Positions 2,699 through 57,102 of a stretch of DNA of 64,000 nt are shown piece by piece. Numbering within the stretch: the first letter of the stretch is position 1; the number at the start of each line of letters is the position of its first letter. The notes below the pieces were generated by a model. That model had not been told where the DNA came from. It worked only from the letters and a program-made list of their open reading frames with translations, and did not search any database. Made by a program: the position numbers and the translations under genes. Source of the stretch: a phage; the NCBI GenBank assembly GCA_025823825.1, contig GCA_025823825.1_4720.1. One strand, written 5' to 3'.

Positions 2699-2788
2699 TC
2701 CGATGCGGTAAATGTCTACTAGCTCTCATAATCTATTGAAGAAACTACCGGCTTACGCCAACTTAGATTAATCAGGAGTAACCATCCC

Positions 2789-3262: not shown

Positions 3263-4944
3263 GCGAACAAGAAAAAGAAGTCGTGACGAATCAGGAAGCC
3301 ACCGAACGTTCAGAGTCGTCCGTTGAAACTACGATTCCGGCAAGTTCCGAGCCGGTTGGTTCCGCACAGCAGGAAAGTAAAGACGAAGTCAGCACGACTA
3401 AAGAAGATGTAGTGGCTCCAGAAGCAACCCGTGAAGAAGAACCATCACATCCACCGCTAATCGATTTCTCGAAGGCGACGATACGTTTCCAATGCGAAGA
3501 CATTCGTCCTAAGAGCCCGAAGAAAACAAAACGCCAGCCGTTGGTGTTACCGTTATATTCTCCGCGTGTACAGACAACGTATTACCGGGAATACATCAAC
3601 GAAGCAATGGATACCGTACAAGCCATTGTCGCTCAACGCGGTAAACCGACAGACGAACAGTTTGATAAATTCAGTAAAGCGGTGGTGCAATCGGTTGCTG
3701 ATGGACAATATCATCCGCGTGGTCCAGCTCACGATCGTGCGTTGGAACGTAAGGGCAGTCAGTGGACTAACGTGCCCGTAGACTCATCGGGTGTTGGTCG
3801 CGTTATTCCTGGCATCCCGCAACCGAACCATATTCCTGATGATGTCGAAGCGCCGCTGACAGGAACCGATGCGATCTATTTTGCCATCCGTAATACGAAA
3901 TCAGGTGCGCCTGCGGTAATGCCGTTATGGCATAGCGGTATTAAGCTGCAGTTTAATCCGCCGTCAAATGAACGTGTTGCAATTATGCACGAACGTATTG
4001 CTCGCGATAAAATCCTGGGTGGACGTGATAGTACCGGCTTCCTGTTTTCGGCAACCTCGATTATCACCATGAAGCACGCAATCGAATTAGCATTAGAATG
4101 CTGCTACATGGCCAACGTACCTAACCTGGATATACAGCGTTTGAAAGACATTATTCCGGTTACCGATGTTCCAGCGTTATTGTTGAACGTGTTGGTAACC
4201 ATGTATCCGTACGGATATCCTTACGTACAGACCTGCTATCAGAATCCAGAAACCTGCGACTATCGTGTCGAAGATACCGTAAGCTTTGCGAAACTCTATC
4301 AAGTTGACAACAGCGCAATAACCAAACGTATGCGACAGATCATGACCGAAGGTCCGGTCATGACAGATGAACTTTTGCGTGAGTATGCAAACGAACTGGG
4401 TGAAACAAACTCCCGTACGCTGGATCTGTCCGACAACGGTTCTGTTATCATTGAGCTTGAAGTACCGAAGATCTCACGACAAATCGCCATGGGCGAACGC
4501 TGGTTAAGCGATACCCTGGAAGATCTGCGTGATATTCTATCGCGTCCGTCAATGACCGAAGAAGAGCGTGATCGTGTTATTCGTGAACGTCAGTTCTATA
4601 GCTGGATGCGTCAGTATGATGCGTGGATCAAATCGATGCACGTGTCAGTAAACGGTACCATGCGTCGTGTAAGCGATGCGGATACAGCAACGGTATTAGC
4701 GCAGCTGTCTCGTGATAGCGATCTTCGTGAACGCTATATCGATGGGTTGATGCAATTCATCGGTGATTCGACGATTGCGCTTGCAGCAATGCCTGCCTGG
4801 AAATGTCCGAAATGTAATGCCGATATTGCTGACAATCTGCGTGACCAGAAATACTACGATCTGATTGCTTTGGATGTACCCCAGCTTTTTTTTACCCTAA
4901 ACTCCGTCCAATCTCTTCAGGAGGGGATGGACGCGGTATTCTAA
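3259..4944 (+). CDS. hypothetical protein (561 aa) with acidic, Ser/Thr/Glu-rich N-terminal ~70 aa
   Basis: ATG 3259 preceded by AAGGAG and coupled to upstream stop; T8 run near the 3' end, see findings. Confidence 0.7.
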   Translation: MSEQEKEVVTNQEATERSESSVETTIPASSEPVGSAQQESKDEVSTTKEDVVAPEATREEEPSHPPLIDFSKATIRFQCEDIRPKSPKKTKRQPLVLPLYSPRVQTTYYREYINEAMDTVQAIVAQRGKPTDEQFDKFSKAVVQSVADGQYHPRGPAHDRALERKGSQWTNVPVDSSGVGRVIPGIPQPNHIPDDVEAPLTGTDAIYFAIRNTKSGAPAVMPLWHSGIKLQFNPPSNERVAIMHERIARDKILGGRDSTGFLFSATSIITMKHAIELALECCYMANVPNLDIQRLKDIIPVTDVPALLLNVLVTMYPYGYPYVQTCYQNPETCDYRVEDTVSFAKLYQVDNSAITKRMRQIMTEGPVMTDELLREYANELGETNSRTLDLSDNGSVIIELEVPKISRQIAMGERWLSDTLEDLRDILSRPSMTEEERDRVIRERQFYSWMRQYDAWIKSMHVSVNGTMRRVSDADTATVLAQLSRDSDLRERYIDGLMQFIGDSTIALAAMPAWKCPKCNADIADNLRDQKYYDLIALDVPQLFFTLNSVQSLQEGMDAVF

Positions 4945-5366
4945 TCGATCCGCGATACGGGTTACATGACGGACAACTTGTTCGTAATGATGAAAAAATC
5001 TGGGAATTGCTGTTAGCGCGTAAAGGCGATGGTGGCATGAAACTGAACATCGAAATGGGTATTGCGTACGATACCATGTTTGGCTTGTACGATCGTGTTA
5101 ACGACTGGACGCCGTTGAAATGGGTTGCTCAGCACCCCGCTGAAGATCCCTGGGACAGATTAGGGATTAAGCCCTTAATCGAGGATTATGTTCGATTCGG
5201 TATTAAAGAGTTCATGACGTTGGATGCGTTTTTACAAGCACCGTATCCTTACGCGCAAACGGTACTCAAAATCGCACAAGACGAACTGCGGAAACGTAGT
5301 GCGGTACTGGACGACGATGAGGACAAGTTACGACGAGAAGAAGAACGTTTACGAAACGGAAAATAA
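4845..5366 (+). CDS. downstream frame reachable by -1 frameshift from 3259..4944 (or an independent ~110-aa ORF from ATG 5037)
   Basis: Frame is stop-free from 4845; ORF track starts it at a TTG (5007); first ATG is 5037. Confidence 0.35.
   Translation, partial: PEILRSDCFGCTPAFFYPKLRPISSGGDGRGILIDPRYGLHDGQLVRNDEKIWELLLARKGDGGMKLNIEMGIAYDTMFGLYDRVNDWTPLKWVAQHPAEDPWDRLGIKPLIEDYVRFGIKEFMTLDAFLQAPYPYAQTVLKIAQDELRKRSAVLDDDEDKLRREEERLRNGK
4886..4893 (+). other. T8 homopolymer / candidate -1 slippery site (T_TTT_TTT in the zero frame)
   Basis: Eight T at 4886-4893 inside the overlap between the 3259..4944 frame and the -1 frame open from 4845 to 5366. Confidence 0.5.
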
Positions 5367-5367
5367 A

Positions 5368-5877
5368 ATGGCGAGATTTACCAGTTTGATTGGGTTGGAT
5401 ATTTGGGAAACACCGGCTGACGTTCGGGTTATTCCTGTCAACACCGTCGGTGTGATGGGACGCGGTCTTGCCAAACAGGCAGCCGATCGCGTCCCCGGTC
5501 TTCTTGAAGCGTACCGTAAGCAATGTCAAGATGGGTTTAAGGTGGGCGAAGTCGTATCGTATCAACACGGCGATAACGATCAACTCACCTACGTGTTGTT
5601 TCCATCAAAATCGGATTGGCGTGAAAGAACACGACGCGAGTATATCGTTAACGGATTACTGGCGTTAAAAGCGTGGTTATTGGAGCTTCAGTTCGAAAGA
5701 GACGGCTTCTCATACCAGCGTCCGGCTGAACCGCTGATTGTCGCAATTCCTCCGGTTGGTTCTGGTTGCGGTAATATCGGTTATGGACAATCTGAAACAA
5801 TCCAGCCTCAATGGGTACGCGCACAAATCAAACAGTATCTTGCCACCGTACCGAACGTTCATTTCTACTTGTTCTAA
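5368..5877 (+). CDS. macro-like domain protein (putative ADP-ribose binding/processing)
   Basis: Real start ATG 5368 (MARFTSLIGLDIW...); motifs VIPVNTVGVMGRGLA and IVAIPPVGSGCGNIGY resemble macro-domain Gly-rich loops. Confidence 0.5.
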   Translation: MARFTSLIGLDIWETPADVRVIPVNTVGVMGRGLAKQAADRVPGLLEAYRKQCQDGFKVGEVVSYQHGDNDQLTYVLFPSKSDWRERTRREYIVNGLLALKAWLLELQFERDGFSYQRPAEPLIVAIPPVGSGCGNIGYGQSETIQPQWVRAQIKQYLATVPNVHFYLF

Positions 5878-5942
5878 CGCAAAGGTAACATAACCCTCCT
5901 CCTTCCCTCACGGGTTGGAGGAGGGCTTATGCTGTTATGCTA

Positions 5943-6317
5943 TTAATGTTCGTTCCAGATGGCATCTTCCGGTGGAACAATAGGATCTTTCTTCGGCATT
6001 GATGGCACTTCATGACGATGCTTACGGAACTGCCTATCAATAACCTCACGAAGCCGGTACGCGTCAACCCAGGTTGATTTATTGAACAGCTCCAACGTCA
6101 CAGTTAATCGTGTTCTTGACATTGAATAGCTTTTCTTCGCAATCAAATTGGGATAATTCAGTTGAGCGAACCACGCACGTATTTGTGCTTCGGTAAAAGC
6201 GATGCTGTAATAACTAAGTTTACCGTCATTAAAATCGTGCGCGTGGGTGTAACGTCCAGCGTAACGCCAGACAAGATGCACATTCAGATCGATCCATGGT
6301 GGGGTGGTATCAGCCAT
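5943..6317 (-). CDS. hypothetical protein (124 aa)
   Basis: Minus-strand ORF convergent with 5368..5877; no motif recognised. Confidence 0.5.
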   Translation of the reverse strand: MADTTPPWIDLNVHLVWRYAGRYTHAHDFNDGKLSYYSIAFTEAQIRAWFAQLNYPNLIAKKSYSMSRTRLTVTLELFNKSTWVDAYRLREVIDRQFRKHRHEVPSMPKKDPIVPPEDAIWNEH

Positions 6318-6326
6318 GTGTTACCC

Positions 6327-6896
6327 TCAACGATTCTTCATCACTTTACCCAGGCTTTCGATATTATCCCAAAAGCGATTTTTACTTGGCGCATCGCCGA
6401 CGATAACCGACATCAAATCGCGACGTTCACGACTGATGATGCCCTGTGATTTCCAGATCACCATCGTCCAGCAAGCAGCCAGAACGAACAGATGATTAAT
6501 ACTCGGTTTGGTTTGCGCGATGAACGCGAGCCATGCCCAGATACCGGTATATACTATCGTCACTAAAAAGAGCGAGATTGTTGCAACGACAACAACGAAG
6601 TTTTGGACAGCGGGTTGATTCGCGTTATCATGAATAGCGGTAAGATCAGGAAGGTTACCTTCAACTGAACTCGTTTCATCGATTTCCAATTCTTCGATTT
6701 CTTTTCGTGTGTCGGGAGCTAATCCGGCATCATCAAGATGCTTTTTTAACCGCTGTATACTTAATCGTTGACCGATAGGAATGTTGATGTTGTCGTAACT
6801 ATTAAGCGCATCAACCAGGGAGCGCCCGTCAACGAGAACCAAGCTCGCAGTACCCATTGTCTGCGGTTTTATTTTGTAAAGGTCTTTTACTTTCAT
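6327..6896 (-). CDS. membrane protein (C-terminal hydrophobic segments)
   Basis: Hydrophobic stretches VVVVATISLFLVTIVYTGIWAWLAFI and LFVLAACWTMVIW. Confidence 0.5.
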   Translation of the reverse strand: MKVKDLYKIKPQTMGTASLVLVDGRSLVDALNSYDNINIPIGQRLSIQRLKKHLDDAGLAPDTRKEIEELEIDETSSVEGNLPDLTAIHDNANQPAVQNFVVVVATISLFLVTIVYTGIWAWLAFIAQTKPSINHLFVLAACWTMVIWKSQGIISRERRDLMSVIVGDAPSKNRFWDNIESLGKVMKNR

Positions 6897-6917
6897 GTAG
6901 ACACCACCTCCAACGTG

Positions 6918-9530
6918 TTAAGCGTCTGGTGTAAAATCAAAAGGAATGTCCGTACGAATGATATCATAACGTTTTCCTAGGAAATAAAACTCTTCGGGAA
7001 CCTGGCCGGGAATAATGCTATCGCCGATGAACTGCGGATACGCCCAGATGTACTGAGTGAGTCCTTCGAACTTATCCAGGTTATTTGCGTGGTTACCCAT
7101 GATACGTTTCCAGAGTTCGCGTTTATACGGTGTTTTAACATCGAATCCATAAAGCGGTGCAAGATCTTCACCAGGAACAAATCCCAGGTAATAATGGATC
7201 TGACTAACCGGGAAACCAAGCGTATCTCGCGGAATGGTGATCGCTTGCTCAGCCTTGGTGACATGCGTTTCAATAATCCAGTCGTAGCACTCCGAATAGA
7301 ACCGATCGAATTTCTCTGGGTTATACCACGCTTTGGGAAGATTCAGTTTCTCCGTGAACGCGTTCGACATGATCGTCGGCAAGAACGGAAGAACGCCGGT
7401 TTTGATCTGCGTGTATTTCGATTTTACCCGGTTAACCAAATTCCAGCAACTGTATCCTAATTGGTCGTTACAAAACTCAACGTAGAGATCGTAGTCACCA
7501 CCGGATAACGGGTTGTTAATATCACCGATGTCTGCGGCGTATTTGTTGGGATATCGGTTATTGAAAGCCAGTTTGGTTTGGTAATCGTAGATACACGGTT
7601 TGTTGTTCGCTGTATTGATCCACCACCAGGGTTCACCTATTTGCACACAAATGTCCTGGACATGGGGGTAGATGATATCAGCAAACGCGGTTAACACGTC
7701 CCCTAACCACGCCATCGCCTGTTGGTTACATGGAGACAGCAACCAGGACGGTGGTGTATATCCGGTTGCGGCGATGTTTCCTTCCCAATCCTGCTGCGCC
7801 CACTCGAACGGGCATGCTGTACTCATCAATTCGTAACTTAAACTGATGGTGACAGAGAAATGGTGTTTTGCAGCATATGCGGCGAAAGCTTCATGCCACG
7901 CGATACAGGGTGGATTTAATACATCCGTGGTGTTCACCAGTAACTTACCCGCACTTGGCGTCCAGACAGTATCGTAGAAATGCGACATTCCAACATAATG
8001 CACTAATTCATCTTGATACCCCGCATAAACCAGGTTTTCAAATACGCGCTCCGGCGTGATGTTGTAATGGTCATCGTAAGCGGTTATCGCACGAAGTTCG
8101 TGTGGTGTACAATGATGGCGATTAACCGTCATTTCTTGATACACCCCATCGATAGGAAGAATCTCGAGGGTTAAACCGAGGTCGATTGGCGTTTCCAGAT
8201 AGGTCGTTTCAGTCGCATCTTCCTTATAATGTCGAGAACTCATGCTGAACATCAACGACGTTACCGATTCGAGTTCGATAGGCTCGTCAGCATAGAACCC
8301 CGCCATTGCGTCATTGAAATCGATCGTTACGATTGCGCTTCTACCGTCTTCAGAGACATCGGTGGCGTATCGGGTTAATGAGATATACTGACGGCTATCG
8401 TCTTTGTGTACGATGGTTAGAACCGGCGGGTTTTCGGTATCTGCAAAGTTACGCTGATCGCCAGTAAACGTGATCTTCGCTTTAAAGATCAAACCGAATA
8501 ACGACGTCATGGGATCATACGCAATACAACCGTGATCCAGCGTATCCGTTGTCCGCCATTCTATCCCGACCAACCCGTTAGCGGTATGGCATCGCATATA
8601 CGCATTAAGGACCATGTCTTCACTGACAACCGCGAAGTTCTCTGTTGACTGACCGTTGATAATCCAATACATCGGTTGCCAGAGGTTACGCGTACCTTTT
8701 GCGTAGCGGTAGGTTGGTGCGCCTTTAGGGTTGCCATTATTGAGATGGAATACGGCAGTACCTTGATAATGGTCGTTCGTATTAATCGGAACACTGTAAG
8801 CATCACCGAGATCCGTACGTTCGACCTTCGTGACTGTTGCGTTTTCAAATAACCCACGTAGCGCCGGTAAACCGATATCTTCAGGCGCGTTTTCTCGACG
8901 AATCGCATCCGCGATGCGGTGGGCTAAGGCAGGGTAAATGACCTCACCCTGCTGTAGGTTTGCAAGACCTACAAAGCGATCGGGGTCGATGCTAGCAATC
9001 AATAACTCGACATCACCCTTCGTTCTATCGTCGTTAAGATATTTCAGTCCGGTAAGGTCAAGATGCTGAATAAGCGACAACAGGTTGTATTTACGGTTTT
9101 CAACAGTTAGTACAAGATCGCCTGCCCAAACCAAACTTCCCTCATCCGCTGTTACTTTAACGGATTGTCGGCCTGTGGTAGACGTTGTTGTCGTTTTATT
9201 TAATTGTCCTTGTAGGAAGTCGGTTGCGAGGTCAAAGGCAATGCCGTAACGGTCAGCGACCGCTTGCATGATTTCACGTAACTGGGTATCTTCTTCAATG
9301 ATAATCTTGACAGGTATTCCCAAGAACGCTTTAGCGAGGTCTCGTTTAACCAACGAGACGAATACGGATTTGTAGTATCGACTTCCATCTTTCCCTTTAA
9401 AAAGAATGGAGGTTGTTTCGGGTGCCGATAGAACACGTGCAAATTCAACATCGTCGAAAGTAAGAGAAAGTCCGTTTTTCTCGTTGGTTAATCTTAGTAT
9501 TTCATTTTGCGCGGTTTCATGTAACTTCAT
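6918..9530 (-). CDS. tail fibre/tailspike-like protein (870 aa) with shared N-terminal module
   Basis: N-terminal ~170 aa paralogous to 15425..15952, 16108..17862 and 55648..57102; GAGG 8 nt upstream of ATG. Confidence 0.6.
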   Translation of the reverse strand: MKLHETAQNEILRLTNEKNGLSLTFDDVEFARVLSAPETTSILFKGKDGSRYYKSVFVSLVKRDLAKAFLGIPVKIIIEEDTQLREIMQAVADRYGIAFDLATDFLQGQLNKTTTTSTTGRQSVKVTADEGSLVWAGDLVLTVENRKYNLLSLIQHLDLTGLKYLNDDRTKGDVELLIASIDPDRFVGLANLQQGEVIYPALAHRIADAIRRENAPEDIGLPALRGLFENATVTKVERTDLGDAYSVPINTNDHYQGTAVFHLNNGNPKGAPTYRYAKGTRNLWQPMYWIINGQSTENFAVVSEDMVLNAYMRCHTANGLVGIEWRTTDTLDHGCIAYDPMTSLFGLIFKAKITFTGDQRNFADTENPPVLTIVHKDDSRQYISLTRYATDVSEDGRSAIVTIDFNDAMAGFYADEPIELESVTSLMFSMSSRHYKEDATETTYLETPIDLGLTLEILPIDGVYQEMTVNRHHCTPHELRAITAYDDHYNITPERVFENLVYAGYQDELVHYVGMSHFYDTVWTPSAGKLLVNTTDVLNPPCIAWHEAFAAYAAKHHFSVTISLSYELMSTACPFEWAQQDWEGNIAATGYTPPSWLLSPCNQQAMAWLGDVLTAFADIIYPHVQDICVQIGEPWWWINTANNKPCIYDYQTKLAFNNRYPNKYAADIGDINNPLSGGDYDLYVEFCNDQLGYSCWNLVNRVKSKYTQIKTGVLPFLPTIMSNAFTEKLNLPKAWYNPEKFDRFYSECYDWIIETHVTKAEQAITIPRDTLGFPVSQIHYYLGFVPGEDLAPLYGFDVKTPYKRELWKRIMGNHANNLDKFEGLTQYIWAYPQFIGDSIIPGQVPEEFYFLGKRYDIIRTDIPFDFTPDA

Positions 9531-9552
9531 TAAAAACCTCAGCCCTTTAGAA

Positions 9553-10194
9553 TTAGATGTACTGCTTACCGCCCACGAAGGAAGTTAACCAGTTCCCGCT
9601 GACGAGTTGTGATACCCAACCTGGAACGGCTCTACCATTCTGGCTCATGATGTTACCACACCAACCAGGGAATCCGGGACGGATGTAATAGAAAGTTAAA
9701 TTGTAGAGATGGCAATTCCATACCGCAACGTTATGTTTACCAGAAACCGCTTTAAAGATAAACGCGACAGGTAACGGAGACGATAACAATTCGGTCACAG
9801 GGACGGCTGACCAGTTCGCATTCGCGTTCCATGGTTGCCAGGTATGGCTACGCGAGTCACCGTTAACGTTACCGTTGCTACCGCGTCCGCCCGCGTTCCA
9901 CCAAAGCGATGGACTCATGTTCTTAAGTGAGGTAAATTGCTGTGGTGGAATATTCGGAATGATAACAGGGTTGGTACCTTGTCCGTGTTTCTTTTCTTTT
10001 GCGTTCACATAGCCGTTTATCGATTCCAGGTATTTGGTACCAGGATAATTGTTCTGGACTTGTGTCGCAATATCACGAACATCGAACGTCCAGCAGATCA
10101 TGGTGTTGTAGTAAGCATCGGTGTTGTCGTACCATGCGTTACCATCTTGTAAACGTGCGCCACTATTCGGTGTTTTATCTGTGTTTATAGCCAT
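9553..10194 (-). CDS. hypothetical protein, paralogue of 10306..10971 (possible fibre-associated adhesin)
   Basis: C-terminus RPGFPGWCGNIMSQNGRAVPGWVSQLVSGNWLTSFVGGKQYI nearly identical to that of 10306..10971. Confidence 0.55.
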   Translation of the reverse strand: MAINTDKTPNSGARLQDGNAWYDNTDAYYNTMICWTFDVRDIATQVQNNYPGTKYLESINGYVNAKEKKHGQGTNPVIIPNIPPQQFTSLKNMSPSLWWNAGGRGSNGNVNGDSRSHTWQPWNANANWSAVPVTELLSSPLPVAFIFKAVSGKHNVAVWNCHLYNLTFYYIRPGFPGWCGNIMSQNGRAVPGWVSQLVSGNWLTSFVGGKQYI

Positions 10195-10305
10195 AGTGTT
10201 GTCCTATACTGCGATGATTGAGATATCGGATGCCGGATGTGTGTTGCCATCAGGTGGTACGTACAGAAACACCCACAGATAAAACAGTAGCTTCTCTAAC
10301 TTCAA

Positions 10306-10971
10306 TTAAATTGAAGTTAGATATTGTTTACCTCCAACAAACGACGTTAACCAATTACCTGAAACAAGTTGCGATGCCCAGCCAGGCACTGCCCTACCGT
10401 TCTGGCTCATCACGTTACCTGCCCATCCCGGAAAACCCGGTCGGAAAATATATACTTGAATATGTGTTAAAGCGTTATCATTACCACTGCCAACAGCAAC
10501 GTTACGACTCCCAGATGACGGGAAATATTCTTTTAAGAACAGAGGATCGGTTGCTAATAAAGATGCGGGCCAAGGGTTCGCGGATGCATCAACATCGAAT
10601 TCGGTCCATCGCCATTTACGTCCCGTGTCGAACCATGTCGATGTACCACCACCCCTCACGGCAAGATTGCGCGCATCACGGACATTATAAATTGATTCGA
10701 TGTTACGCCATCCACCTTTTGCAGCGTTTGCTGCATAGCAAACCGCATTACCACCATTCTTCTTCTCGTAAACGGTTCGTTTGATATGAACACGGTCGAT
10801 GAACGCTTCACCGTATTTGTTGACGAGCGTTTGTGCGATATCACGAAGATCGTGCATGTGAAAAGCGATGTCTTCGTTATGGAACCATGTTGTCTGGTTC
10901 CAGACGGTACCGTTTGGTTCGGCACACATCGATCGGATATTGTTGCGTTGATTAATCGCGATAAAACCCAT
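10306..10971 (-). CDS. hypothetical protein, paralogue of 9553..10194
   Basis: Shared C-terminal block; start set at ATG 10971 (MGFIAINQ...) just after a terminator hairpin and T-rich tract. Confidence 0.55.
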   Translation of the reverse strand: MGFIAINQRNNIRSMCAEPNGTVWNQTTWFHNEDIAFHMHDLRDIAQTLVNKYGEAFIDRVHIKRTVYEKKNGGNAVCYAANAAKGGWRNIESIYNVRDARNLAVRGGGTSTWFDTGRKWRWTEFDVDASANPWPASLLATDPLFLKEYFPSSGSRNVAVGSGNDNALTHIQVYIFRPGFPGWAGNVMSQNGRAVPGWASQLVSGNWLTSFVGGKQYLTSI

Positions 10972-11026
10972 TGTATACCTCGTTCCTATTCTCAAAAAGG
11001 AAATTTCATACGATGACGCCATAGCA

Positions 11027-11056
11027 GCTCCTCCTTCCCTTACGGGTTGGAGGAGC
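11027..11056 (-). terminator. intrinsic terminator-like stem-loop (GCTCCTCC...GGAGGAGC)
   Basis: 8-bp GC-rich stem followed on the minus strand by a T-rich tract, downstream of 11065..11571. Confidence 0.5.
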
Positions 11057-11064
11057 ATACTTAA

Positions 11065-11571
11065 TTACTCGCTGATAACCTCAACGGAATTGGGATCAGC
11101 GATCATCGCACGGTCAGTAGAACAATTGAAGAAGACCATGCCGACACCATCGCCGTTCGAGTTCAGGGTTGAACTTACGTAAGACAGGGTTGGTTTATTC
11201 ATGCGGTAGAAGCGTTCGCTGGTAGCGGTATTGAACCCCAGATCAACGTAGTCTTTCACCGTGGTATACAACTGTGTGGATTCGAAAACGGTTACCGGAG
11301 AGTCGACGGTAAACTGACTACCTTCATCCACAACCAGAACTTTATCGTTCCAGATTTCAGTGGTTGAAAACTTCGGTTTCCAATGTTCGAATTCCTGGGT
11401 TGCTCCCCAGCAGGAATACACAGCGAGATTGCTGTTCTTCTCAACCGGTTTCAATCCCACCAGTTGTGTCAGGTCTTTATCCAGGTTCGGTAAGCCTTCC
11501 AGCGTAGCGCACCCACCCAGAGAAAGTACCATCAACATACCAAGAATAATCGCGCAGAGTTTCTTCATCAT
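11065..11571 (-). CDS. putative lipoprotein
   Basis: N-terminus MMKKLCAIILGMLMVLSLGGC has a signal peptide with lipobox-like LGGC. Confidence 0.6.
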   Translation of the reverse strand: MMKKLCAIILGMLMVLSLGGCATLEGLPNLDKDLTQLVGLKPVEKNSNLAVYSCWGATQEFEHWKPKFSTTEIWNDKVLVVDEGSQFTVDSPVTVFESTQLYTTVKDYVDLGFNTATSERFYRMNKPTLSYVSSTLNSNGDGVGMVFFNCSTDRAMIADPNSVEVISE

Positions 11572-11619
11572 TAGATTTCCTTATGTGTTAACGGAAGTGA
11601 CTTCCATAAGGATTGATGA

Positions 11620-12009
11620 TTACTTTTTGAGCGCTTTAAGTTCTTCTTCCAACGCTTCCACTTTTGCCGTAAGCTTCTGTACTTGTTTGATTAATGGAAC
11701 CACCAAACGTTCGTACATAACACCTTCAGCGACGAGTCCGTTAGAAGAAACGATAGCGGGGTCATCTTCTTCGGTTGCATCACGCCAGTGCACGTACTGC
11801 GGTGCGATCTCACCAACCTCTTCAGCAATCAACCCATACCAACCCCAATCCTTGTTGTCTGCTTCACATGTGGAACGATACCAAACAGGACGCATCTCCA
11901 ATACTTTATCCGCTTGTTCATCCGTGATATTCTCGATATCTTTCTTATAGCGACGCGACGACGTTGAACGAAACACATTGTTGATCCCAGAAACAGGACT
12001 GATATACAT
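11620..12009 (-). CDS. S74-type intramolecular chaperone domain protein (free-standing)
   Basis: SRRYKKDIENI...WYGLIAEEVGEIAPQYV...VMYERLVVPLIKQVQKLTAKVEALEEELKALKK matches the layout of the C-terminal chaperone domain of endosialidase-type fibres. Confidence 0.6.
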   Translation of the reverse strand: MYISPVSGINNVFRSTSSRRYKKDIENITDEQADKVLEMRPVWYRSTCEADNKDWGWYGLIAEEVGEIAPQYVHWRDATEEDDPAIVSSNGLVAEGVMYERLVVPLIKQVQKLTAKVEALEEELKALKK

Positions 12010-12058
12010 GTTAGCCCCGCTGGTTGTAGTGCTAATGTCCCATACCGCAAATCCGCCG

Positions 12059-15000
12059 TTACTCCCATTTTTTTACGATCAATGTGTTGGCAATAATGTC
12101 CAGGTTATTGTCGTAACCGGTTAATTGTCTTTCCGTTACATAACTGGATAGATTGACCGAGTAGTTCTTACTGTTATAACAACGACGCCATCCTGGGCTG
12201 TTGGTACTGCCATTATAGTTGTCGTAGCTATAAATGAACTCGGAGTTGGTTTTCGCACCACTGACGGAAGACGTGGTTGCGGTCGTAACACGGATGGTAT
12301 AGTTTGTCATCCCGAAGCTAACGACCTCGATAACAGCACCAGCCAGAGGGATAATACCGCACTTGGTTTCACTGTCTGGGATGTATGCGCTGTCGGCAGC
12401 TGCGAAGGAGCAACGTGCGACCCAGGCGCGGGTATTGAATGCACCTTGGTTTTGCAACAACGTGATAAACGATGAGGTCGTAATCGAGCTGTTATTATCA
12501 CCGGTGATCAACCAGCCGGTCGGGCATGCGGTTGCGCCAACGTTTTTCGCTGTTAACGTGATGTTCTGCGATCCGTCGAAGGCTACGCCACTGATAGTGC
12601 GCGCAGTCTGCAGTTTCGTCGCCGTTGCTGCGTTCCCTGATGTGTTCTGGTTCCCTGCGGCGTTAACACCCGGCAGATTGATATTCGCACTACCGTCGAA
12701 AGACACCCCACCAATGGTGCGGGCGGTTTTCAGTTTTGTCGCCGTGGCGGCATTACCGGTCGTGTCTTGGTTACCGGTGGTGTTTACCCCAGGTAGGTTG
12801 ATATTGGCCGTTCCGTTAAATGAAACACCACCAATCGTCCGTGCCGTTTGCAACTTCGTTGCGGATGCCGCATTCCCCGTGGTGTTTTGGTTACCTGTTG
12901 TATTCACACCTGGGATACTATCCTTAGATGTGTAGATCTGTGCCCATTCCGACCAGTTCGCATCTGATGCATCACGACGCGAACGTAGGTAAGCTGGAGC
13001 GTGTGCGCCTGAAGTACCTGACCATCCAATAAGGATCTCACCTTCACCTACTGCGGTTGCTCCTTTAAGATGAACAACGTTACCGTAGGCTGTAGGGTAT
13101 CCGTTATTGTACGCTTCATACATCTGGATGCCCGTATTGCTGCCCTGGGTCGCATTAGCTAAAGCGGTGACTCGTCCCATGGAAGCGAGCACGTTAATGC
13201 TAAAGCTAATATCAGTTGTACCATCAAAGGCGACCCCATTAATCTTCCGTGCTGTTTGGAGTTTCGTGGCAGTAGCCGCATTACCAGAGGTACTCTGATT
13301 ACCTGCTTTGTTCACGCCTGGTAAATCAATGTTGGCGGTTCCATCAAAGGACACACCCCCTATGGTTCTCGCCGTCTGAAGTTTTGTTGCTGAACCGGCG
13401 TTTCCGGAAGTGCTTTGATTACCCGCCGCGTTAACACCCGGTAGGTTAATGCTAGCAGAACCATCAAAAGAAACACCACCGATTGTGACAGCCGTTTTCA
13501 ATTTCGTGGCTGTCGCAGCGTTACCCGTTGTATTCTGATTGCCAGCTGCATTGACGCCAGGTAATGCGATATCAGCTGTGCCATCGAACGCGACACCGCC
13601 TATTTTACGGGCGGTTTGTAGCTTGGTTGCTGTAGCGGCATTACCGCTGGTATTTTGCGTACCGGCTTTATTTACACCGGGAAGATCGATGTTAGCAGAA
13701 CCGTCGAAGCTGACGCCACCTATTGTTCTTGCGGTAGCGAGTTTAGTTGCTGTGGTTGCAGCATTACCAGCCTTTAACCATTCGCCCCATGGGCCATCCA
13801 CGCCGTTCCATGAAGCTGTTAAACTACGTACGTAAATATTTCCTGTACGTACGGTGTAACGCTGTGTTCCACCGAATTGCCCAGCTGGGAGCACTTCGAT
13901 GTAACCTACTGCGTTTGCTTCAGGGAAATTGTGGGCAGCATCAGCATTCGTTGACGTTTGTTTGGACCAAATACCCACAGACGCTTCAACCGGACCGTAG
14001 GTATTTAGATTCGCATCGGTGGGAAGCTGTCCTCGGAAACGTCGGAATAATGAAGCTGTTAACCCCAACGTTGTTTGCATCCCTTCAATGCTTGACTGCG
14101 ATAAAAGCGCCCGAGCTGTCGACGTGATAGCCGCTAAAGCAACCTTATCCGTACCGGTAAAATACGGGAATTTGTTTGCTGAAGTTGCTAAACCTGAAAG
14201 GGCGGTCAGTAATGCGTTAAGGGGTTGTTTCCCAGCCAGCGCGTTAGTTACTGTTGTTGCGAAATTAGGGTCGTTGCCTAAAGCTTGAGCCAGCTCATTA
14301 AGCGTATTTAGCGCTTCTGGCGACGAGTCGATCAGTGATGCGATAGCACGCATCACAAATTCCGTGTTGGCGATCTGTTGACTGCTATCGTTATCTGCAG
14401 CCGTAGGTGCTGCTGGGATACCGGTGAACACAGGGTTATTAAGATCTGCCTTGAGAGCGATGAGACGTCTAAGCGCTTCGACATCGACTTTCAGGTTTTC
14501 CCATCCGACGAGATAACCATCACCGGTTGTATGATAACGGTTGTACCAAAAATCACCATTGACACCGAAATAGAATATTCCTTTCTCTTCGTATTGTGGG
14601 CCGGAACTGTTCCGTGATGAGCTAATGTATTTTATTTCGATAAGGCCGTCGAATACCACTCCTGGGATGATTTTATTATTTCCAGCTGGCTGTGATACTT
14701 GGTACATCCCCGGGGTTGCGGCTTTAACCCACGTTAAGAATTCTGTTACTCCGGCGCTACCACTGAAATTCTTAACGTCGGTAAGTATCGCCCCATAACC
14801 GAACATACCGGGTAGAGCAACTCGTCCGCTGGTACGGTCACGAATATTTGATGCGACGACAGGCAGCTGTTTACGAACATTGTTAACCGCCTTAGGTGTG
14901 GCCGATTTTGTCTCGTCATCGCTATCGATGGCGTTGCTCAGGATGGTCAGTCCTCGAGTATTTGTGGTCGCATCAGGAAGAAACGCGTTATCCAACACCT

Positions 15001-15418
15001 TAAGTTGTACAGCGCTCGTGTTACTAACAACGAGATACATCTGACAGTTAAGAACGCTGGATGCACCTTCAGTAGGCACCGGCTTATATCTTTCCGGTGC
15101 GCTGCAAACAGCGATCAGAACACCCTGATCGTCATACAGACCGATTTCACGTACCCAGAATCCACCTTGGTTTACAGGAATAATACCCTCAACAATAATC
15201 CTGGTTGTGTCATCCGTATCGACACGGATATTAGCAACTTCCCCACGATAAACTTCGTGTACGAGCGCTGTTTGACCAACAGCCGGTGTCGGTATCGACC
15301 CGTTACCATCGCCAACAGCAAAATGTGTGATTTTTAGTTTCTCGCCACCAGGAAGTAGTGCGGCGGCGATACGTTCAGCGCCTTTATCGGTAATGACCGT
15401 TTTATATGTTGTACTCAT
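12059..15418 (-). CDS. long tail fibre protein, P2 gpH-like N-terminus with tandem fibre repeats
   Basis: N-terminus TVITDKGAERIAAALLPGGEKLKITHFAVGDGNGSIPTPAVGQTALVHEVYRGEV and block IANTEFVMRAIASLIDSSPEALNTLNELAQALGNDPNFATT resemble P2 gpH; about ten repeats of ...GNAATATKLQTARTIGGVSFDGSANIDLPGVN... Confidence 0.85.
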   Translation of the reverse strand: MSTTYKTVITDKGAERIAAALLPGGEKLKITHFAVGDGNGSIPTPAVGQTALVHEVYRGEVANIRVDTDDTTRIIVEGIIPVNQGGFWVREIGLYDDQGVLIAVCSAPERYKPVPTEGASSVLNCQMYLVVSNTSAVQLKVLDNAFLPDATTNTRGLTILSNAIDSDDETKSATPKAVNNVRKQLPVVASNIRDRTSGRVALPGMFGYGAILTDVKNFSGSAGVTEFLTWVKAATPGMYQVSQPAGNNKIIPGVVFDGLIEIKYISSSRNSSGPQYEEKGIFYFGVNGDFWYNRYHTTGDGYLVGWENLKVDVEALRRLIALKADLNNPVFTGIPAAPTAADNDSSQQIANTEFVMRAIASLIDSSPEALNTLNELAQALGNDPNFATTVTNALAGKQPLNALLTALSGLATSANKFPYFTGTDKVALAAITSTARALLSQSSIEGMQTTLGLTASLFRRFRGQLPTDANLNTYGPVEASVGIWSKQTSTNADAAHNFPEANAVGYIEVLPAGQFGGTQRYTVRTGNIYVRSLTASWNGVDGPWGEWLKAGNAATTATKLATARTIGGVSFDGSANIDLPGVNKAGTQNTSGNAATATKLQTARKIGGVAFDGTADIALPGVNAAGNQNTTGNAATATKLKTAVTIGGVSFDGSASINLPGVNAAGNQSTSGNAGSATKLQTARTIGGVSFDGTANIDLPGVNKAGNQSTSGNAATATKLQTARKINGVAFDGTTDISFSINVLASMGRVTALANATQGSNTGIQMYEAYNNGYPTAYGNVVHLKGATAVGEGEILIGWSGTSGAHAPAYLRSRRDASDANWSEWAQIYTSKDSIPGVNTTGNQNTTGNAASATKLQTARTIGGVSFNGTANINLPGVNTTGNQDTTGNAATATKLKTARTIGGVSFDGSANINLPGVNAAGNQNTSGNAATATKLQTARTISGVAFDGSQNITLTAKNVGATACPTGWLITGDNNSSITTSSFITLLQNQGAFNTRAWVARCSFAAADSAYIPDSETKCGIIPLAGAVIEVVSFGMTNYTIRVTTATTSSVSGAKTNSEFIYSYDNYNGSTNSPGWRRCYNSKNYSVNLSSYVTERQLTGYDNNLDIIANTLIVKKWE
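12580..13790 (-). repeat. in-frame tandem repeats (~28-40 aa units) within the tail fibre gene, two blocks
   Basis: Repeated ATKLQTAR(T/K)IGGVxFDG motif in the translation; antisense shadow ORFs also repetitive; coordinates approximate. Confidence 0.6.
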
Positions 15419-15424
15419 GGCGTT

Positions 15425-15952
15425 TTATCCCGGGTAAATAGTGATGGTGTCACCAACGATAGTTGTAGCACCGGCGTAAAGATACGCTGGTGATGCCTCA
15501 CGTTGGTTTGTCACGATAAGATCCAGTCTCCCACGCCAAACCACGGAGGTATTCGCGATGGGAATCGAGATCTTCTTGGAAGTATCGTCACGAAAATTAA
15601 TGGCGGTAGCAAGGGTAACTGAATCAAAATCAACGTCGGGTTCAAAGTTGAATCCGTATTGATCTGAAATAGCTTGAATAACCGCTCTTATGGTTGTTGT
15701 TTCAACCGACTCCAAAACGATTTTTATCGGTATTCCTAGAAATGCTTTCGCGATATCACGTCGTGTGTAAGTGATAAAACTTTCACCACACCACCTTGTT
15801 CCTTCATTTGCTGTGACGATCACTTTTGCCCTGTTAGCACCAGAACTCCCATCCAGGGTTAAAGTGAGATCGGAGTTGCTGAATACACTACCGTTACGTT
15901 GGTTTATCAACGTAATAAGTTCGTCTTTCCATGGTGGGTAAAGTGAACGCAT
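15425..15952 (-). CDS. fibre adaptor module protein (shared N-terminal module only, ~175 aa)
   Basis: Start ATG 15952 (MRSLYPPWKDELITLINQRN) with GGAGGAGG 8 nt upstream; TAA is in frame with and 6 nt upstream of the fibre ATG. Confidence 0.55.
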   Translation of the reverse strand: MRSLYPPWKDELITLINQRNGSVFSNSDLTLTLDGSSGANRAKVIVTANEGTRWCGESFITYTRRDIAKAFLGIPIKIVLESVETTTIRAVIQAISDQYGFNFEPDVDFDSVTLATAINFRDDTSKKISIPIANTSVVWRGRLDLIVTNQREASPAYLYAGATTIVGDTITIYPG

Positions 15953-15992
15953 ATGCGCACCCTCCTCCAATAATCAAATTAAAATGCAAAAC

Positions 15993-16020
15993 GCCTCGAA
16001 ACCAGGGTGCGATTCGAGGC
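15993..16020 (-). terminator. intrinsic terminator (GCCTCGAA...TTCGAGGC plus T-rich tail)
   Basis: 8-bp stem, 12-nt loop, followed on the minus strand by GTTTTGCATTTTAATTT. Confidence 0.55.
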
Positions 16021-16063
16021 AAACGTAAACAGTCTTAACGACCGCATAAAATTCCGCGCATAT

Positions 16064-16084
16064 TACCCCCCCCCCTCGACGAAG
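16064..16084 (-). repeat. C10 homopolymer with flank TA-C10-TCGACGAAG (copy 1)
   Basis: Ten C at 16066-16075; same flanks as the C11 tract at 34212-34222. Confidence 0.7.
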
Positions 16085-16107
16085 CGAGGTAGAGGAGGAT
16101 AACACGA

Positions 16108-17862
16108 TTATGCTGCTACATACCCAGGCCAACGTTCTCTTGGCCAGTTTGTTGCGCCCTGTCCAACGTTGTCCTTACCAGAAGTTACATTACTTACATC
16201 CCAACCACTAAGATCCTGGTTAAATGCGGTGTTGTTACGCATCATGAGGTCGATATTACGTAATGATTGGGTATTCCAGCCGGAAATGTCTTGGTTGAAT
16301 GCCGTGTTGTAAGCAAACATGTTAACAACGTTTTGTAATTTTGAAGTGTTCCAGCCGCTAATATCGCCATTGAACTGCATGTTCGAGAACATACTGCTAG
16401 CATCGATAAGACTATCTGTTTTCCAGTTAACCAGCTTGTTCTCATCAAGTGCGTTGCAACTACTGAACATGTAACTCATGTTGTTAACTTTGGATACATC
16501 CCATTTATCTAACCCGTTACCAACGAACTCGTAACAAGCTTGGAACATCCAGCTCATGTCGGTAACCTGGCACACATTCCATTTGCTAAAGTCGAGGTTG
16601 AGTTTTGCGCATCCGGAGAAAGTTTTATACATACTGGTGATACGACTAACATCCCATTCTTGAATGTTAGGATCATTAAGTATAGATAAGAATTGGAACA
16701 ATCCGTCTAACGACGTCCATTTCTCTGGAATACGGTTTGGTACTGTACGGAGCGATGAAAGGTTATTGGTTGACGGAGAGCGGAACATACCGTTATCCCA
16801 ATTTACGATTTCCGTAATGTTGTACCCACGGATCGTTTGGCGTCCATTACCATTATACACAGACCCTGTTGCAGTTATTGTATATTCGTTTGTATCAGCA
16901 TACGTATATTCAGCCTGTGTAGGCCACTCACCTATTACATCCCTATTCCCATCACCCCAGTCAATGGAAATATCTATCCAACCATCAAGATCTAGGGTAA
17001 CGGTCCCGCCATTGGTCTTCAGGATGTATTTACCTGCATTGTCGGTATAATAACAAACAATCATCGCACCGTACAGGTTACCAATTTGCCAATCATCCTT
17101 TTGAGTTACCGCGATTTGTGCTGTACCACGCTGTAAGAAAAGTACCGTACGGTTCTCGTCAGTCTGTAGTGCGGTTAGTGCTTGAGTCTTATCATCGTCG
17201 GTAATTTCACCGGCTTCCATTAAAGCACTTAACATTCTTTCGAAGTACTCGATAGGCAACTGAGGTCCTACCGACATATCAACTGATGGAACAGTGAGAT
17301 CATCCAATGCTGCTGCCGTTGCGAGGACTAATGATCCCTTGGCGGTGTCTGTTTCTTGGAGGTAACGCAGTCCCGTAATCTGGTACGCTTGAATGATTGT
17401 AATCAGATCCAGTGTATCGTTAATGACCTGTACTTGTAAATGTCCAGACCAAACATAGCTGCTTTCAGCAATCGGTAATTCGACCGACTGAATACCCGAC
17501 GTTTCAAAACTGATCTTCTTATTAAGATCGGCTTCCAGGAAATCAACAGCTAGGTCGAAATTTATACCGTACTTCTCAGCGATGGAATCTACAATGTTCC
17601 TGAAAGCAACATCGGTACTTACGATGAAACGTAACGGGATCCCGGTGAACGCGTTGGCAATATCTCGACGAACATACGTGAGCGACTGCTCGAAGAAATA
17701 AGGACTGTTATCTCCAGGTTTGATGGTTACCTGGCATACTTCAGGATGTTCAGCTGGAATGAAAGATTCGAATTTAACGTCGGTTTCCTTCAACGATAGC
17801 ATGTTCTTCCGGTTTACCAACGCCAGAAGATCAGCTTTCCACCCAGGATAAACTGTAGACAT
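16108..17862 (-). CDS. tail fibre-like protein with shared N-terminal module and C-terminal BspA-like (DUF285-type) repeats
   Basis: Start ATG 17862 (MSTVYPGWKADLLALVNRKN) with GGAG upstream; C-terminal repeats WDVSxVxxMxxMFxxxxxFNQDISGWN. Confidence 0.65.
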   Translation of the reverse strand: MSTVYPGWKADLLALVNRKNMLSLKETDVKFESFIPAEHPEVCQVTIKPGDNSPYFFEQSLTYVRRDIANAFTGIPLRFIVSTDVAFRNIVDSIAEKYGINFDLAVDFLEADLNKKISFETSGIQSVELPIAESSYVWSGHLQVQVINDTLDLITIIQAYQITGLRYLQETDTAKGSLVLATAAALDDLTVPSVDMSVGPQLPIEYFERMLSALMEAGEITDDDKTQALTALQTDENRTVLFLQRGTAQIAVTQKDDWQIGNLYGAMIVCYYTDNAGKYILKTNGGTVTLDLDGWIDISIDWGDGNRDVIGEWPTQAEYTYADTNEYTITATGSVYNGNGRQTIRGYNITEIVNWDNGMFRSPSTNNLSSLRTVPNRIPEKWTSLDGLFQFLSILNDPNIQEWDVSRITSMYKTFSGCAKLNLDFSKWNVCQVTDMSWMFQACYEFVGNGLDKWDVSKVNNMSYMFSSCNALDENKLVNWKTDSLIDASSMFSNMQFNGDISGWNTSKLQNVVNMFAYNTAFNQDISGWNTQSLRNIDLMMRNNTAFNQDLSGWDVSNVTSGKDNVGQGATNWPRERWPGYVAA

Positions 17863-18088
17863 AAGCACTCCAATCATGGGGGCGAACGCCCCCCATCAGT
17901 TAAATGATCGTTTACGTCGCGTAAGGGTAATATAATTGCTGTGAGCCATATCAGAAGTTCACAACATTCTGAATCATAAGGTTACGTCGTTGGAAACAAA
18001 CCGATACAGATTCTTCATAGAACATTGAGATGATGGAAACCTAATTCGTACCATGAAAGCCGCAATAAAAAAAAGAAAAATAGGAAAA

Positions 18089-50071: not shown

Positions 50072-50086
50072 CCACCTTCCTCCATG

Positions 50087-50608: not shown

Positions 50609-50663
50609 TCTTTTCGATTCCTATTAAAAGTGACCGATTTCTGTGGTCGAGATTGCTAATAAA

Positions 50664-51125: not shown

Positions 51126-51174
51126 GTCCTATACGAACATGAAAAACCGTTAATTTTTACCATAGCCGCGTGCG

Positions 51175-52553: not shown

Positions 52554-52575
52554 TCATTATTCTCCGCTTTCATGT

Positions 52576-55647: not shown

Positions 55648-57102
55648 ATGAAACTCAAACAAAGCTGGAAAGACGAACTTCTCGCGTTAGTAAACAACAA
55701 AAACAGTTTACAGCTGACATTAGACGACGTAAAATTTGAACTAACTGAACCGGTAAGCGAAGTGCCCGGAACAGTCGTCGTTACGATCAAACCGAACGAT
55801 GATAGCCGTTACTTTAACGAGCAGTCTCTGACCTACATCCGTCGAGACATCGCTAAAAACTTCACCGGGATCCCGTTACGTGTTATCGTTAAAAATGATA
55901 CCGTCGTAAGGGATATCATCAATACGATTGCTGAACGTTACGGATTGGTATTTGACACAACCGTTGACTTCCTCGAATCAGAGCTGAATAAGCAGATTAC
56001 GTTCGAAGACACCGGTATTAAAGACATTACGGTTCCGGTTGCAAACACGTCTTATGTTTGGGCTGGTAATCTTCAGTTCAATATCGCTAACGATACGTTA
56101 AGCTTGATTACGATCATCAAGGAAACCAATCTTACGAATCTGGTTTATCTGGATGGCGTTGAAGCTGACACAACCGGATCGTTATTATTAGCAACGGCCT
56201 CGATTATCGACGATAACGGAAATACCGAAACAACTGAAGGTGTCCTTGATGCCGAGTACTTCCAGAATGTCCTGAATGTCATGGTTCGTTATGGTGATAT
56301 TACCAGCGAACAAATGCAACAAGCAATGCAGACAATTAACCAAAACGAAGACGTTCGTGAAGTGGAGGTTAAGTCATACGGCGACTCTGAGCTGTTGGTA
56401 ACCACAAAGAAAGATTGGGCTATCGGTAACCTTAAGGGCGCTATGGCAGTTGTTCGCAACGCTCAACCGAAACCAATTCAGTACATTCTCAAAACGAATG
56501 GCGGCTCCGTTACACTAGCATTGGACGGTTGGACAAATATTTCCATCGATTGGGGTGATGGGAATAAAGCAACATTACCAGGCGGACAAACTCGCGGATT
56601 CCACGAATACAGTGACGGTACAGAACGTACGATTGTAGCTACTGGTGTCCTCTCAAACCCTGAAGCACCAACACAGACACAAACCATCAGCGGCGATAAC
56701 ATCACTGAAATCGTTGACTGGAACAACGGATTACCGCAGGCTGTACAATTAACGGGATTAACCAGTTTGATTAAGGTTCCCGATTATATCCCGTCATACT
56801 GGACAACGTTGGAAAGTTTGTTCGAGAGCTGCTCATCGATAAACGACGTAAACATCACGAAATGGAATACCGGTAACGTCACATCAATGAAGAATTTGTT
56901 CTTTGGCTGTAACGTCTTCAACCAACCGATCATCGTATGGGATGTTACCCATGTAACAAATATCGACAATATGTTCTCGGGATGTTCGGCGTTCAACCAG
57001 GATCTAAGGATGTGGTCATTCCCAGCGGATACTTCCCGCAACAACTACGATAACGGTGCTACAGCCTGGCGGTCAGAGTATCGTCCAAGCTTCGATTTGT
57101 AA
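55648..57102 (+). CDS. tail fibre-like protein with shared N-terminal module and C-terminal BspA-like repeats (remote, opposite-strand paralogue)
   Basis: N-terminus MKLKQSWKDELLALVNNKNSLQLTLDDVKF... paralogous to 16108..17862; C-terminal ...VFNQPIIVWDVTHVTNIDNMFSGCSAFNQDL. Confidence 0.65.
   Translation: MKLKQSWKDELLALVNNKNSLQLTLDDVKFELTEPVSEVPGTVVVTIKPNDDSRYFNEQSLTYIRRDIAKNFTGIPLRVIVKNDTVVRDIINTIAERYGLVFDTTVDFLESELNKQITFEDTGIKDITVPVANTSYVWAGNLQFNIANDTLSLITIIKETNLTNLVYLDGVEADTTGSLLLATASIIDDNGNTETTEGVLDAEYFQNVLNVMVRYGDITSEQMQQAMQTINQNEDVREVEVKSYGDSELLVTTKKDWAIGNLKGAMAVVRNAQPKPIQYILKTNGGSVTLALDGWTNISIDWGDGNKATLPGGQTRGFHEYSDGTERTIVATGVLSNPEAPTQTQTISGDNITEIVDWNNGLPQAVQLTGLTSLIKVPDYIPSYWTTLESLFESCSSINDVNITKWNTGNVTSMKNLFFGCNVFNQPIIVWDVTHVTNIDNMFSGCSAFNQDLRMWSFPADTSRNNYDNGATAWRSEYRPSFDL

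Follow-up and report, generated by a model that had tools for sequence, protein, structure and literature searches.

The 64,000-nucleotide (nt) stretch of phage DNA analysed here (GenBank assembly GCA_025823825.1, contig GCA_025823825.1_4720.1; the window hereafter) contains four genes, A to D, whose products start with a common N-terminal module and differ in their distal parts. An earlier reading of the letters alone (the original prediction) had described them as fibre-like, and the listing of open reading frames (ORFs) places all four where that reading had them. For protein C the listing prolongs the start to an upstream ATG at 17877, yet 17862 is preferred because some 50 relatives all measure 584 amino acids (aa). 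The window belongs to a relative of Escherichia phage vB_EcoM_Goslar (237 kb, genus Goslarvirus), a nucleus-forming E. coli jumbo phage of the Chimalliviridae. By megablast, window positions 6000-16121 correspond to Goslar 93551-103565 (92% nt identity) and positions 50000-62000 to Goslar 139484-151476 (94%, in one piece), both on the same strand, and nothing closer to the window than Goslar was found in the phage collection. The four genes and their domains are as follows.

6918..9530, minus strand: protein A, 870 aa, orthologue of Goslar gp86 (99.1% aa identity)
~8700-9530, minus strand: full DUF7941 module of protein A, aa 2-277 (Pfam 5.9e-43)
~8181-8678, minus strand: NCTSP_N domain of protein A, aa 285-450 (Pfam 5e-11)
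~7020-8105, minus strand: N4 gp64/gp65-type TIM barrel of protein A, aa 476-837 (Pfam TIM-barrel_NCTSP 2e-85)
15425..15952, minus strand: protein B, 175 aa counted from the ATG of the original prediction, orthologue of Goslar gp91 (88% aa identity); DUF7941 1.1e-16, profile positions 7-154 of 276
16108..17862, minus strand: protein C, 584 aa, no Goslar orthologue; occupies the place of gp92 and gp93
17413-17862, minus strand: DUF7941 N-terminal domain of protein C, aa 1-150
17047-17412, minus strand: linker and C-terminal subdomain of protein C, aa 151-272
~16765-17037, minus strand: beta-sandwich of protein C, aa 276-366
16111-16755, minus strand: DUF285/PARCEL repeat solenoid of protein C, aa 370-584
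55648..57102, plus strand: protein D, 484 aa, orthologue of Goslar gp161 (78.6% aa identity)
55648-56463, plus strand: DUF7941 module of protein D, aa 1-272
56464-57099, plus strand: beta-sandwich and DUF285/PARCEL repeats of protein D

The resemblance of the four N-termini is far above chance in pairwise BLASTP. That of A aligns with those of B, C and D at E-values of 5.8e-22, 5.6e-36 and 7.4e-40, and that of B with those of C and D at 2.5e-25 and 1.8e-29, while C and D match at 9e-131 with 48% identity over 447 aa. A hidden Markov model of the module, run against the 477 six-frame ORFs of at least 50 aa in the window, retrieves exactly A, B, C and D (E <= 1e-72); there is no fifth copy among these ORFs, the next-best score having an E-value of ~2. 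All four proteins exceed the gathering score (27 bits) of Pfam family DUF7941 (PF25613), with 147.8 bits for A, 61.5 for B, 76.9 for C and 84.0 for D. The common module had been put at ~170 aa. The sharing stands, but the portion present in all four is the DUF7941 N-terminal domain of ~150 aa, and a longer module of ~272 aa (N-terminal domain, linker and C-terminal subdomain) is common to A, C and D only. Protein B, taken for the module alone, indeed comes without a distal domain, but it carries only the N-terminal domain and a tail of 25 aa.

An exhaustive profile search of 1.84e9 representative proteins yields 214 clusters at E <= 1e-3, in which the module is nearly always N-terminal and the proteins carrying it range from 165 to 1478 aa. 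The majority of the 48 long members have no distal domain that Pfam recognises; DUF285 occurs in 11 of the 48, and Kelch/propeller, LRR_5 and NCTSP TIM-barrel domains are found as well. PHROG assigns the module to phrog_1037 and phrog_2935, both described as 'virion structural protein'. Among catalogued phages, the module is confined to jumbo phages of 212-307 kb, and that a carrier of DUF7941 is a chimallivirus holds for the window too, with its 92-94% nt identity to Goslar. Judged by sequence, the four genes are true paralogues of a chimallivirus-specific DUF7941 family.

A profile built from 65 modules matches a single solved protein, chain 0 of PDB entry 9xqd ('PHIKZ127'), at an E-value of 1.4e-25, aligning profile positions 9-270 with residues 11-290 and hence the whole module. 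Protein D alone found no match among PDB sequences; phiKZ gp127 is reached only with the 65-sequence profile. (For the outer peripheral baseplate of phiKZ, the Goslar preprint discussed below gives the entry name '9QXD'; the PHIKZ127 chain was found in 9xqd.) AlphaFold2 models of D aa 1-285 and of full-length C, with a mean predicted local distance difference test score (pLDDT) of 89.8 and 89.6, respectively, consist of an alpha/beta N-terminal domain (aa 1-150), a linker (~aa 151-200 in D) and a C-terminal subdomain up to ~aa 272. In Foldseek searches of the PDB (significance at E <= 1e-3), 9xqd_0 is the only significant match for both the D model (E 1.6e-6, TMt 0.60) and the C model (E 4e-5, TMt 0.67), at a probability of 1.00 and with all 150 modelled residues aligned. 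In phiKZ, each star-lobe complex of the outer peripheral baseplate contains one gp127, located where a band of five gp139 dimers ends (PMC13250141).

The distal parts of A, C and D are of types found in surface-binding or glycan-processing proteins. The C-terminus of the 870-aa protein A, previously listed as unknown, matches the PF23845/PF23844 pair above threshold, with 287 bits for TIM-barrel_NCTSP and 42.5 bits for NCTSP_N, as well as phage N4 gp64 (PDB 9lc0_M, E 2.2e-30) and, weakly, N4 gp65 (9lc0_I, E 5e-7). Together, these two proteins make up the non-contractile sheath of N4, and gp65 has long been known as its receptor-binding protein (PMC13434306). The repeats that end C and D had been called BspA-like; repeats are present, under the more precise names DUF285 in Pfam (above threshold, with 150.5 bits for C and 75.3 bits for D) and PARCEL in NCBIfam (TIGR02167; 65.4 bits for C against a cut-off of 30, and 27.1 bits for D, just under it). 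The beta-sandwich of C (aa 276-366) holds a 'DWGDGN' motif. When the full-length C model was searched by fold, neither the beta-sandwich nor the PARCEL solenoid had a significant PDB match.

In these genes the N-terminal domain is the constant element, and relatives differ by exchanges of distal domains, with the breakpoints at the module borders. At the locus of C, homology to Goslar in blastn halts at 16120, between genes B and C, and returns at 18025, between C and the gp94 orthologue:

16120..18025, strand not applicable: cassette replaced with respect to Goslar (blastn breakpoints and locus matrix)

In this place Goslar has gp92 (1198 aa, 'tail protein') and gp93 (276 aa). Goslar gp92 gives no BLASTP match to C, and the nearest Goslar protein to C is its paralogue gp161 (45%). 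The C type is not rare, being represented by ~50 clusters of 74-95% identity, all of ~584 aa, on contigs of up to 248 kb. Seven loci anchored on flanking genes were surveyed (a contig scan with the gp94 orthologue gave three loci, one of which is Goslar itself), and the gp92 position takes at least four allelic states among them:

Goslar (L001 = L008) and L009: gp93 and gp92
The window, L004 and L005: C type of 584 aa
L006: C type of 477 aa
L007: apparent hybrid gp93(1-81)::gp92(732-1198), without the tail-fibre N-terminus

In the 477-aa protein of L006, the N-terminal domain is fused straight to the beta-sandwich and PARCEL repeats, without linker and C-terminal subdomain. The C types (n = 50) have a mean identity of 0.93 in the N-terminal domain, 0.81 in the linker and C-terminal subdomain, 0.71 in the beta-sandwich and 0.85 in the repeats. 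D-type orthologues repeat this contrast, with identities of 0.91-0.97 in the N-terminal domain and 0.36-0.95 distally. The DNA of D and Goslar gp161 is 89-97% identical up to ~nt 56350, falls to 62-80% until the end of the gene and rises to 86-99% beyond it. The mosaic structure of D, the cassette states and the identities per domain are direct evidence for the exchangeable distal domains on a constant N-terminal module that the original prediction had proposed, and module exchange, which it had also raised, is visible between relatives at the C locus and within D. The distal domains plausibly recognise the host.

Some further features of these loci are worth recording. A stretch of 64 nt in the intergenic region upstream of C (17928-17991) matches the interior of Goslar gp92 (L001 16664-16727, 87.5%) and did not turn up in L004 or L005; the cassette replacement may have left it behind as a scar. 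L006, a more distant relative, has a minimal island (4199-7000), in which the 477-aa gene is followed by gp88-like and gp87/o250-like genes, without B, tail fibre or A. In L007 (~2224-4831), the hybrid is followed by a gene with a B/C-like N-terminal domain and then by a Caudo_TAP-type assembly gene. No match to the tail-fibre N-terminus was found in L007, the rest of the fibre having been left out of that query; this island is a deleted or rearranged version.

The family has been described before in Goslar, the nearest relative, together with a proposed role, and three of the four genes are covered there: in BLASTP and in genome position, A corresponds to gp86, B to gp91 and D to gp161. Basu et al. 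(April 2026, 10.64898/2026.04.21.720040) list ten DUF7941 proteins in Goslar (gp22, gp23, gp31, gp33, gp34, gp86, gp91, gp92, gp93 and gp161); three of these, gp86, gp92 and gp161, carry carbohydrate-binding, glycoside-hydrolase or LRR/beta-helix domains behind the module. Negative stain shows filaments of purified gp22, and in the head-to-tail dimers predicted by AlphaFold 3 each protomer docks by its linker and C-terminal subdomain on the N-terminal domain of the next, while a gp126-gp127 heterodimer fits density in the phiKZ baseplate that had been unexplained (10.64898/2026.04.21.720040). The preprint puts forward a 'DUF7941 fibre cloud' with its anchor at the peripheral baseplate (10.64898/2026.04.21.720040). 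Their mass-spectrometry estimates, in copies per virion, are ~2144 for gp23, ~577 for gp22, ~111 for gp161, ~4.9 for gp92, ~4.8 for gp93, ~4.5 for gp86 and ~1.2 (two peptides) for gp91 (10.64898/2026.04.21.720040, Table S4). Virion proteomics had been named as the result that could overturn the original prediction; for the orthologues of A, B and D its outcome is the opposite of an exclusion. By transfer from these orthologues, A, B and D are predicted to be in the virion. New in the window are the cassette with C in the place of gp92, the mapping of the mosaic boundaries, the link of A to N4 gp64/gp65 and the variants without a donor linker.

These variants bear on how the chains would be assembled. 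In D, the linker contains a motif at aa 151-168 (~L-x2-I-x7-L-x-G-L-x-Y) that is conserved family-wide as strongly as the core of the N-terminal domain, in a family whose members have diverged to ~20% identity. In the monomer model of C, the linker is disordered (pLDDT <50 at aa 160-167). The motif is absent from B and its orthologues P0128 and P0142; B also lacks the C-terminal subdomain. Its gene ends 6 nt upstream of the tail-fibre start. The conservation of the linker, its disorder in C and its absence from B are suggestive of the docking model and fit it.

Overall, we regard it as probable that the four genes are DUF7941 paralogues with a constant, baseplate-anchored N-terminal domain, which form heteropolymeric chains carrying host-recognition cargo and diversify by distal swapping. 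Family membership, homology and a common fold with the baseplate-located phiKZ gp127, orthology of A, B and D with Goslar proteins from virion preparations, and modular evolution around an unchanging N-terminal domain are established. The inferred part of this explanation is that head-to-tail chains are rooted at the baseplate and that their cargo serves host recognition. The linker and C-terminal subdomain of one protomer would dock on the N-terminal domain of the next, giving flexible heteropolymeric chains rooted at the baseplate. As cargo, these chains would display the N4 gp64/gp65-type TIM barrel and putative carbohydrate-binding domain of A and, from both C and D, a beta-sandwich and a PARCEL/DUF285 repeat solenoid; these cargo domains may bind or process host surface structures. 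Protein B would offer an acceptor N-terminal domain while missing the donor linker; under the docking model it would therefore end a chain, as would the 477-aa protein of L006, since it has no donor part. Host range would then evolve through swaps of whole cassettes or of parts distal to the retained N-terminal domain.

Several points weigh against this explanation. The virion location of A to D and of their Goslar orthologues is a prediction, the Goslar cryo-EM maps contain no DUF7941 density, and the Goslar preparation also held the non-virion assemblies chimallin, ChmC and PhuZ (10.64898/2026.04.21.720040), so self-assembling DUF7941 filaments could simply co-purify with virions. The estimate for gp91, with its two peptides, is close to a single copy. 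Head-to-tail docking comes from AlphaFold prediction and from negative stain of gp22, a paralogue outside the four considered here, and the D monomer model places the beginning of the linker (aa 151-160) with confidence (pLDDT 92), which would allow docking in cis. The membership of gp92 in the family rests on the structure prediction of the preprint (10.64898/2026.04.21.720040), and gp92 has no Pfam match at all, DUF7941 included. Finally, the receptor-binding or enzymatic roles of the distal domains are putative, and no solved structure resembles the PARCEL solenoid.

Two extensions of the docking model are more speculative, and we consider them doubtful. In the first, the system would be a plug-and-play heteropolymer: donor-competent subunits extend chains with varied cargos from six baseplate sites, donor-less proteins such as B/gp91 and the C type of L006 terminate them and so set filament length or tip identity, and swaps at the gp92 position reprogram host range while the baseplate is left untouched. 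In the second, B might couple the classical tail fibre to the DUF7941 network; this idea stems from the 6-nt spacing to the fibre gene and from L006, which is without both B and the fibre, and it has to be weighed against L007, which retains a B-like gene without the fibre N-terminus.

Among the other explanations, the first to be weighed is that of the original prediction, namely a classical multi-receptor-binding system as in CBA120, phi92 and G7C, in which a stoichiometric adaptor N-terminus plugs trimeric tailspikes or fibres into a branched baseplate complex at one fixed site each. Variable C-termini behind a constant N-terminus characterise such systems, the true tail fibre is flanked by the genes, the four to five copies of gp86, gp92 and gp93 would suit about six sites per baseplate, and phiKZ gp127 is single in each star lobe. 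Nevertheless, no match to T4 gp10-like/XD adaptors or to tailspike N-termini was found in Pfam, PHROG, NCBIfam, PDB sequences or by fold. The module is modelled as a globular alpha/beta domain with a flexible linker and not as a trimerisation element, gp22 makes long filaments, and the copy numbers of gp161, gp22 and gp23 (~111, ~577 and ~2144) are incompatible with fixed-site adaptors. We consider this explanation unlikely, and phi92 and CBA120 serve as an analogy only: a relation to their adaptors in sequence or fold went undetected, and phiKZ gp127 is the sole structural relative. Nor are the genes fibre-like in the classical sense; the true tail fibre (12059-15418, Phage_tail_fib) lies among them and does not carry the module.

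A role outside any appendage is improbable in our estimation. In such a case, the proteins would be intracellular or free filaments that co-purify with the virion, or a decoration of capsid or tail, and would have no part in adsorption. The presence of chimallin, ChmC and PhuZ in the Goslar preparation and the missing density speak for it, as do the PHROG category ('head and packaging: virion structural protein') and the position of D/gp161 among replication and transcription genes, distant from the tail genes. On the other hand, phiKZ gp127 is built into baseplate density, three of the genes are located in the tail-fibre island, and the distal domains belong to surface-binding or glycan-processing types that also occur in the receptor-binding sheath of N4. 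Their fast evolution and cassette swapping are moreover a signature of host interaction. Decoration of the capsid or tail, a variant to which the PHROG category and an older GenBank remark ('weakly similar to capsid protein ESCO13') point, was rated unlikely in its own right.

It is highly improbable that C (16-18 kb) and D (55.6-57.1 kb), on the minus and plus strand, respectively, serve as substrates for a 38-kb inversion, which the original prediction had raised, or for ongoing gene conversion, either of which would switch host range: they are paralogous, opposite in orientation and alike in domain architecture, and the mosaic distal parts of D-type genes imply that recombination acts over evolutionary time, but their DNA similarity is low and patchy (best high-scoring segment pair 85 bp at 81%, longest exact word 21 nt), both window ends are colinear with Goslar in the same orientation, the 1.9 kb difference in offset agrees with indels seen in the island, gp161 has the same place and strand in Goslar, L004 and L005 retain the local order, and no site-specific recombination signals were seen, with no invertase search made. 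Features of an invertible segment of the Mu G or P1 C type, i.e., long near-identical inverted repeats and an alternative orientation with respect to Goslar, were likewise not found (invertases were not searched for). Exchange between paralogues over evolutionary time, and not a switch, is plausible.

The tail fibre that separates B from A lies in the same variable island:

11620..15418, minus strand: tail-fibre gene and S74 chaperone segment, without the module; Phage_tail_fib N-terminus and fibre repeats; between B and A

L004 has one gene of 1480 aa here, which in the window is split into a fibre gene (1119 aa) and a 129-aa Peptidase_S74 chaperone ORF. The split, at ~12066-12072, results from a 1-nt homopolymer insertion (A7 in the window, GTAAAAAAATGGG, versus A6 in L004), and the 150 residues past the frameshift are 100% identical to L004. 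The frameshift could be a sequencing error, a recent mutation or a case of slippage. Compared with Goslar gp90/gp89, the fibre (12059-15418) is a mosaic: the N-terminus and repeat region are 73-90% identical and the tip differs. Goslar has a tip with a glycine-rich C-terminal domain and a separate Caudo_TAP assembly protein (gp89), whereas in the window and in L004 the fibre ends with an S74 intramolecular chaperone and a TAP gene is absent. Between A and the fibre, a 250-aa ORF (10306-11058, minus strand) is a paralogue of the adjacent 213-aa ORF (9553-10194, Goslar gp87), with 36% identity overall and, as judged by eye, high similarity over the last ~45 aa. Goslar and L004 lack the 250-aa ORF, and a related copy occurs in L005 (85%) and L006 (70%); neither of the two paralogues has a family match. 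The 168-aa ORF at 11065-11571 (minus strand) corresponds to Goslar gp88 (98%) and has a lipoprotein-like signal start with a lipobox-like motif, MMKKLCAIILGMLMVLSLGGC. Goslar gp88 is estimated by mass spectrometry at ~737 copies per virion, unexpectedly high for a small protein of the fibre island (10.64898/2026.04.21.720040).

Some of the intergenic regions carry possible signals as well. Two C homopolymers, C10 at 16066-16075 and C11 at 34212-34222, occur where none is expected from 100 shuffles; the C10 run is situated 33 nt downstream of the stop codon of protein C and adjoins a hairpin seen by eye. Such runs are also error-prone sites in sequencing. A consensus terminator scan supports one strong hairpin, upstream of C (18119-18088), and did not confirm the hairpins seen by eye between C and B and upstream of D; the Goslar record annotates a terminator upstream of gp161. 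As the scan supported only 18119-18088, C and D are not claimed as separate transcription units. Matches to a sigma-70-like promoter stay at or below the shuffle expectation, and this consensus would say little about a phage that has RNA polymerases of its own.

Little is understood of the way in which nucleus-forming jumbo phages locate their hosts, and the DUF7941 'fibre cloud' was proposed very recently. The window lends comparative support to this proposal and adds no new principle. Published work already explains the finding itself, and its new parts are modest. The support consists of a conserved N-terminal anchor with recombination breakpoints at its boundary, at least four alternative cassettes at one locus among Goslar-like phages, and natural variants with and without the donor linker, which can serve as test cases for the head-to-tail model and for host-range engineering of Goslar-type phages.

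Compared with known systems, the genes of the window share with CBA120 (TSP1-4), phi92 and G7C (gp63.1/gp66) the principle of several receptor-binding proteins per virion with conserved attachment and exchangeable distal domains. Those systems use trimeric spikes and T4 gp10-like/XD adaptors at fixed stoichiometry, whereas DUF7941 is proposed to polymerise head to tail. In coliphage N4 (gp64/gp65; PDB 9lc0, 9yf4), the TIM barrel homologous to that of A is part of a six-fold sheath around a podovirus tail, in which the gp65 subunit of the heterodimer binds the receptor; N4 has no DUF7941, while here the domain follows DUF7941 in a myovirus. Within the chimalliviruses, the phiKZ paralogues gp131-gp135 have a common N-terminal baseplate-attachment domain and differing C-termini (PMC13250141), and this set is a closer analogy than phi92/CBA120, although their N-terminal domain is a different one, a six-helix bundle in a hetero-hexameric fibre base, and they are absent from the DUF7941 listing of the preprint (10.64898/2026.04.21.720040). 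Phage phiKZ gp127, likewise a chimallivirus protein, is homologous over the whole module and has the same N-terminal-domain fold at ~21-23% identity; gp127 (290 aa) and gp126 consist of the module only, without distal cargo domains, and the baseplate position is established for gp127 and not for gp126. Closest of all is Goslar, with direct orthologues of A, B and D in the same genome positions and orientation and the same order of an N-terminal DUF7941 followed by a carbohydrate-binding/glycoside-hydrolase-like or LRR-type domain. Its gp161 and D have an identity of 0.97 in the N-terminal domain and of 0.59-0.65 distal to the module, and where Goslar has gp92 and gp93, the phage of the window has the 584-aa DUF7941-PARCEL protein C instead.

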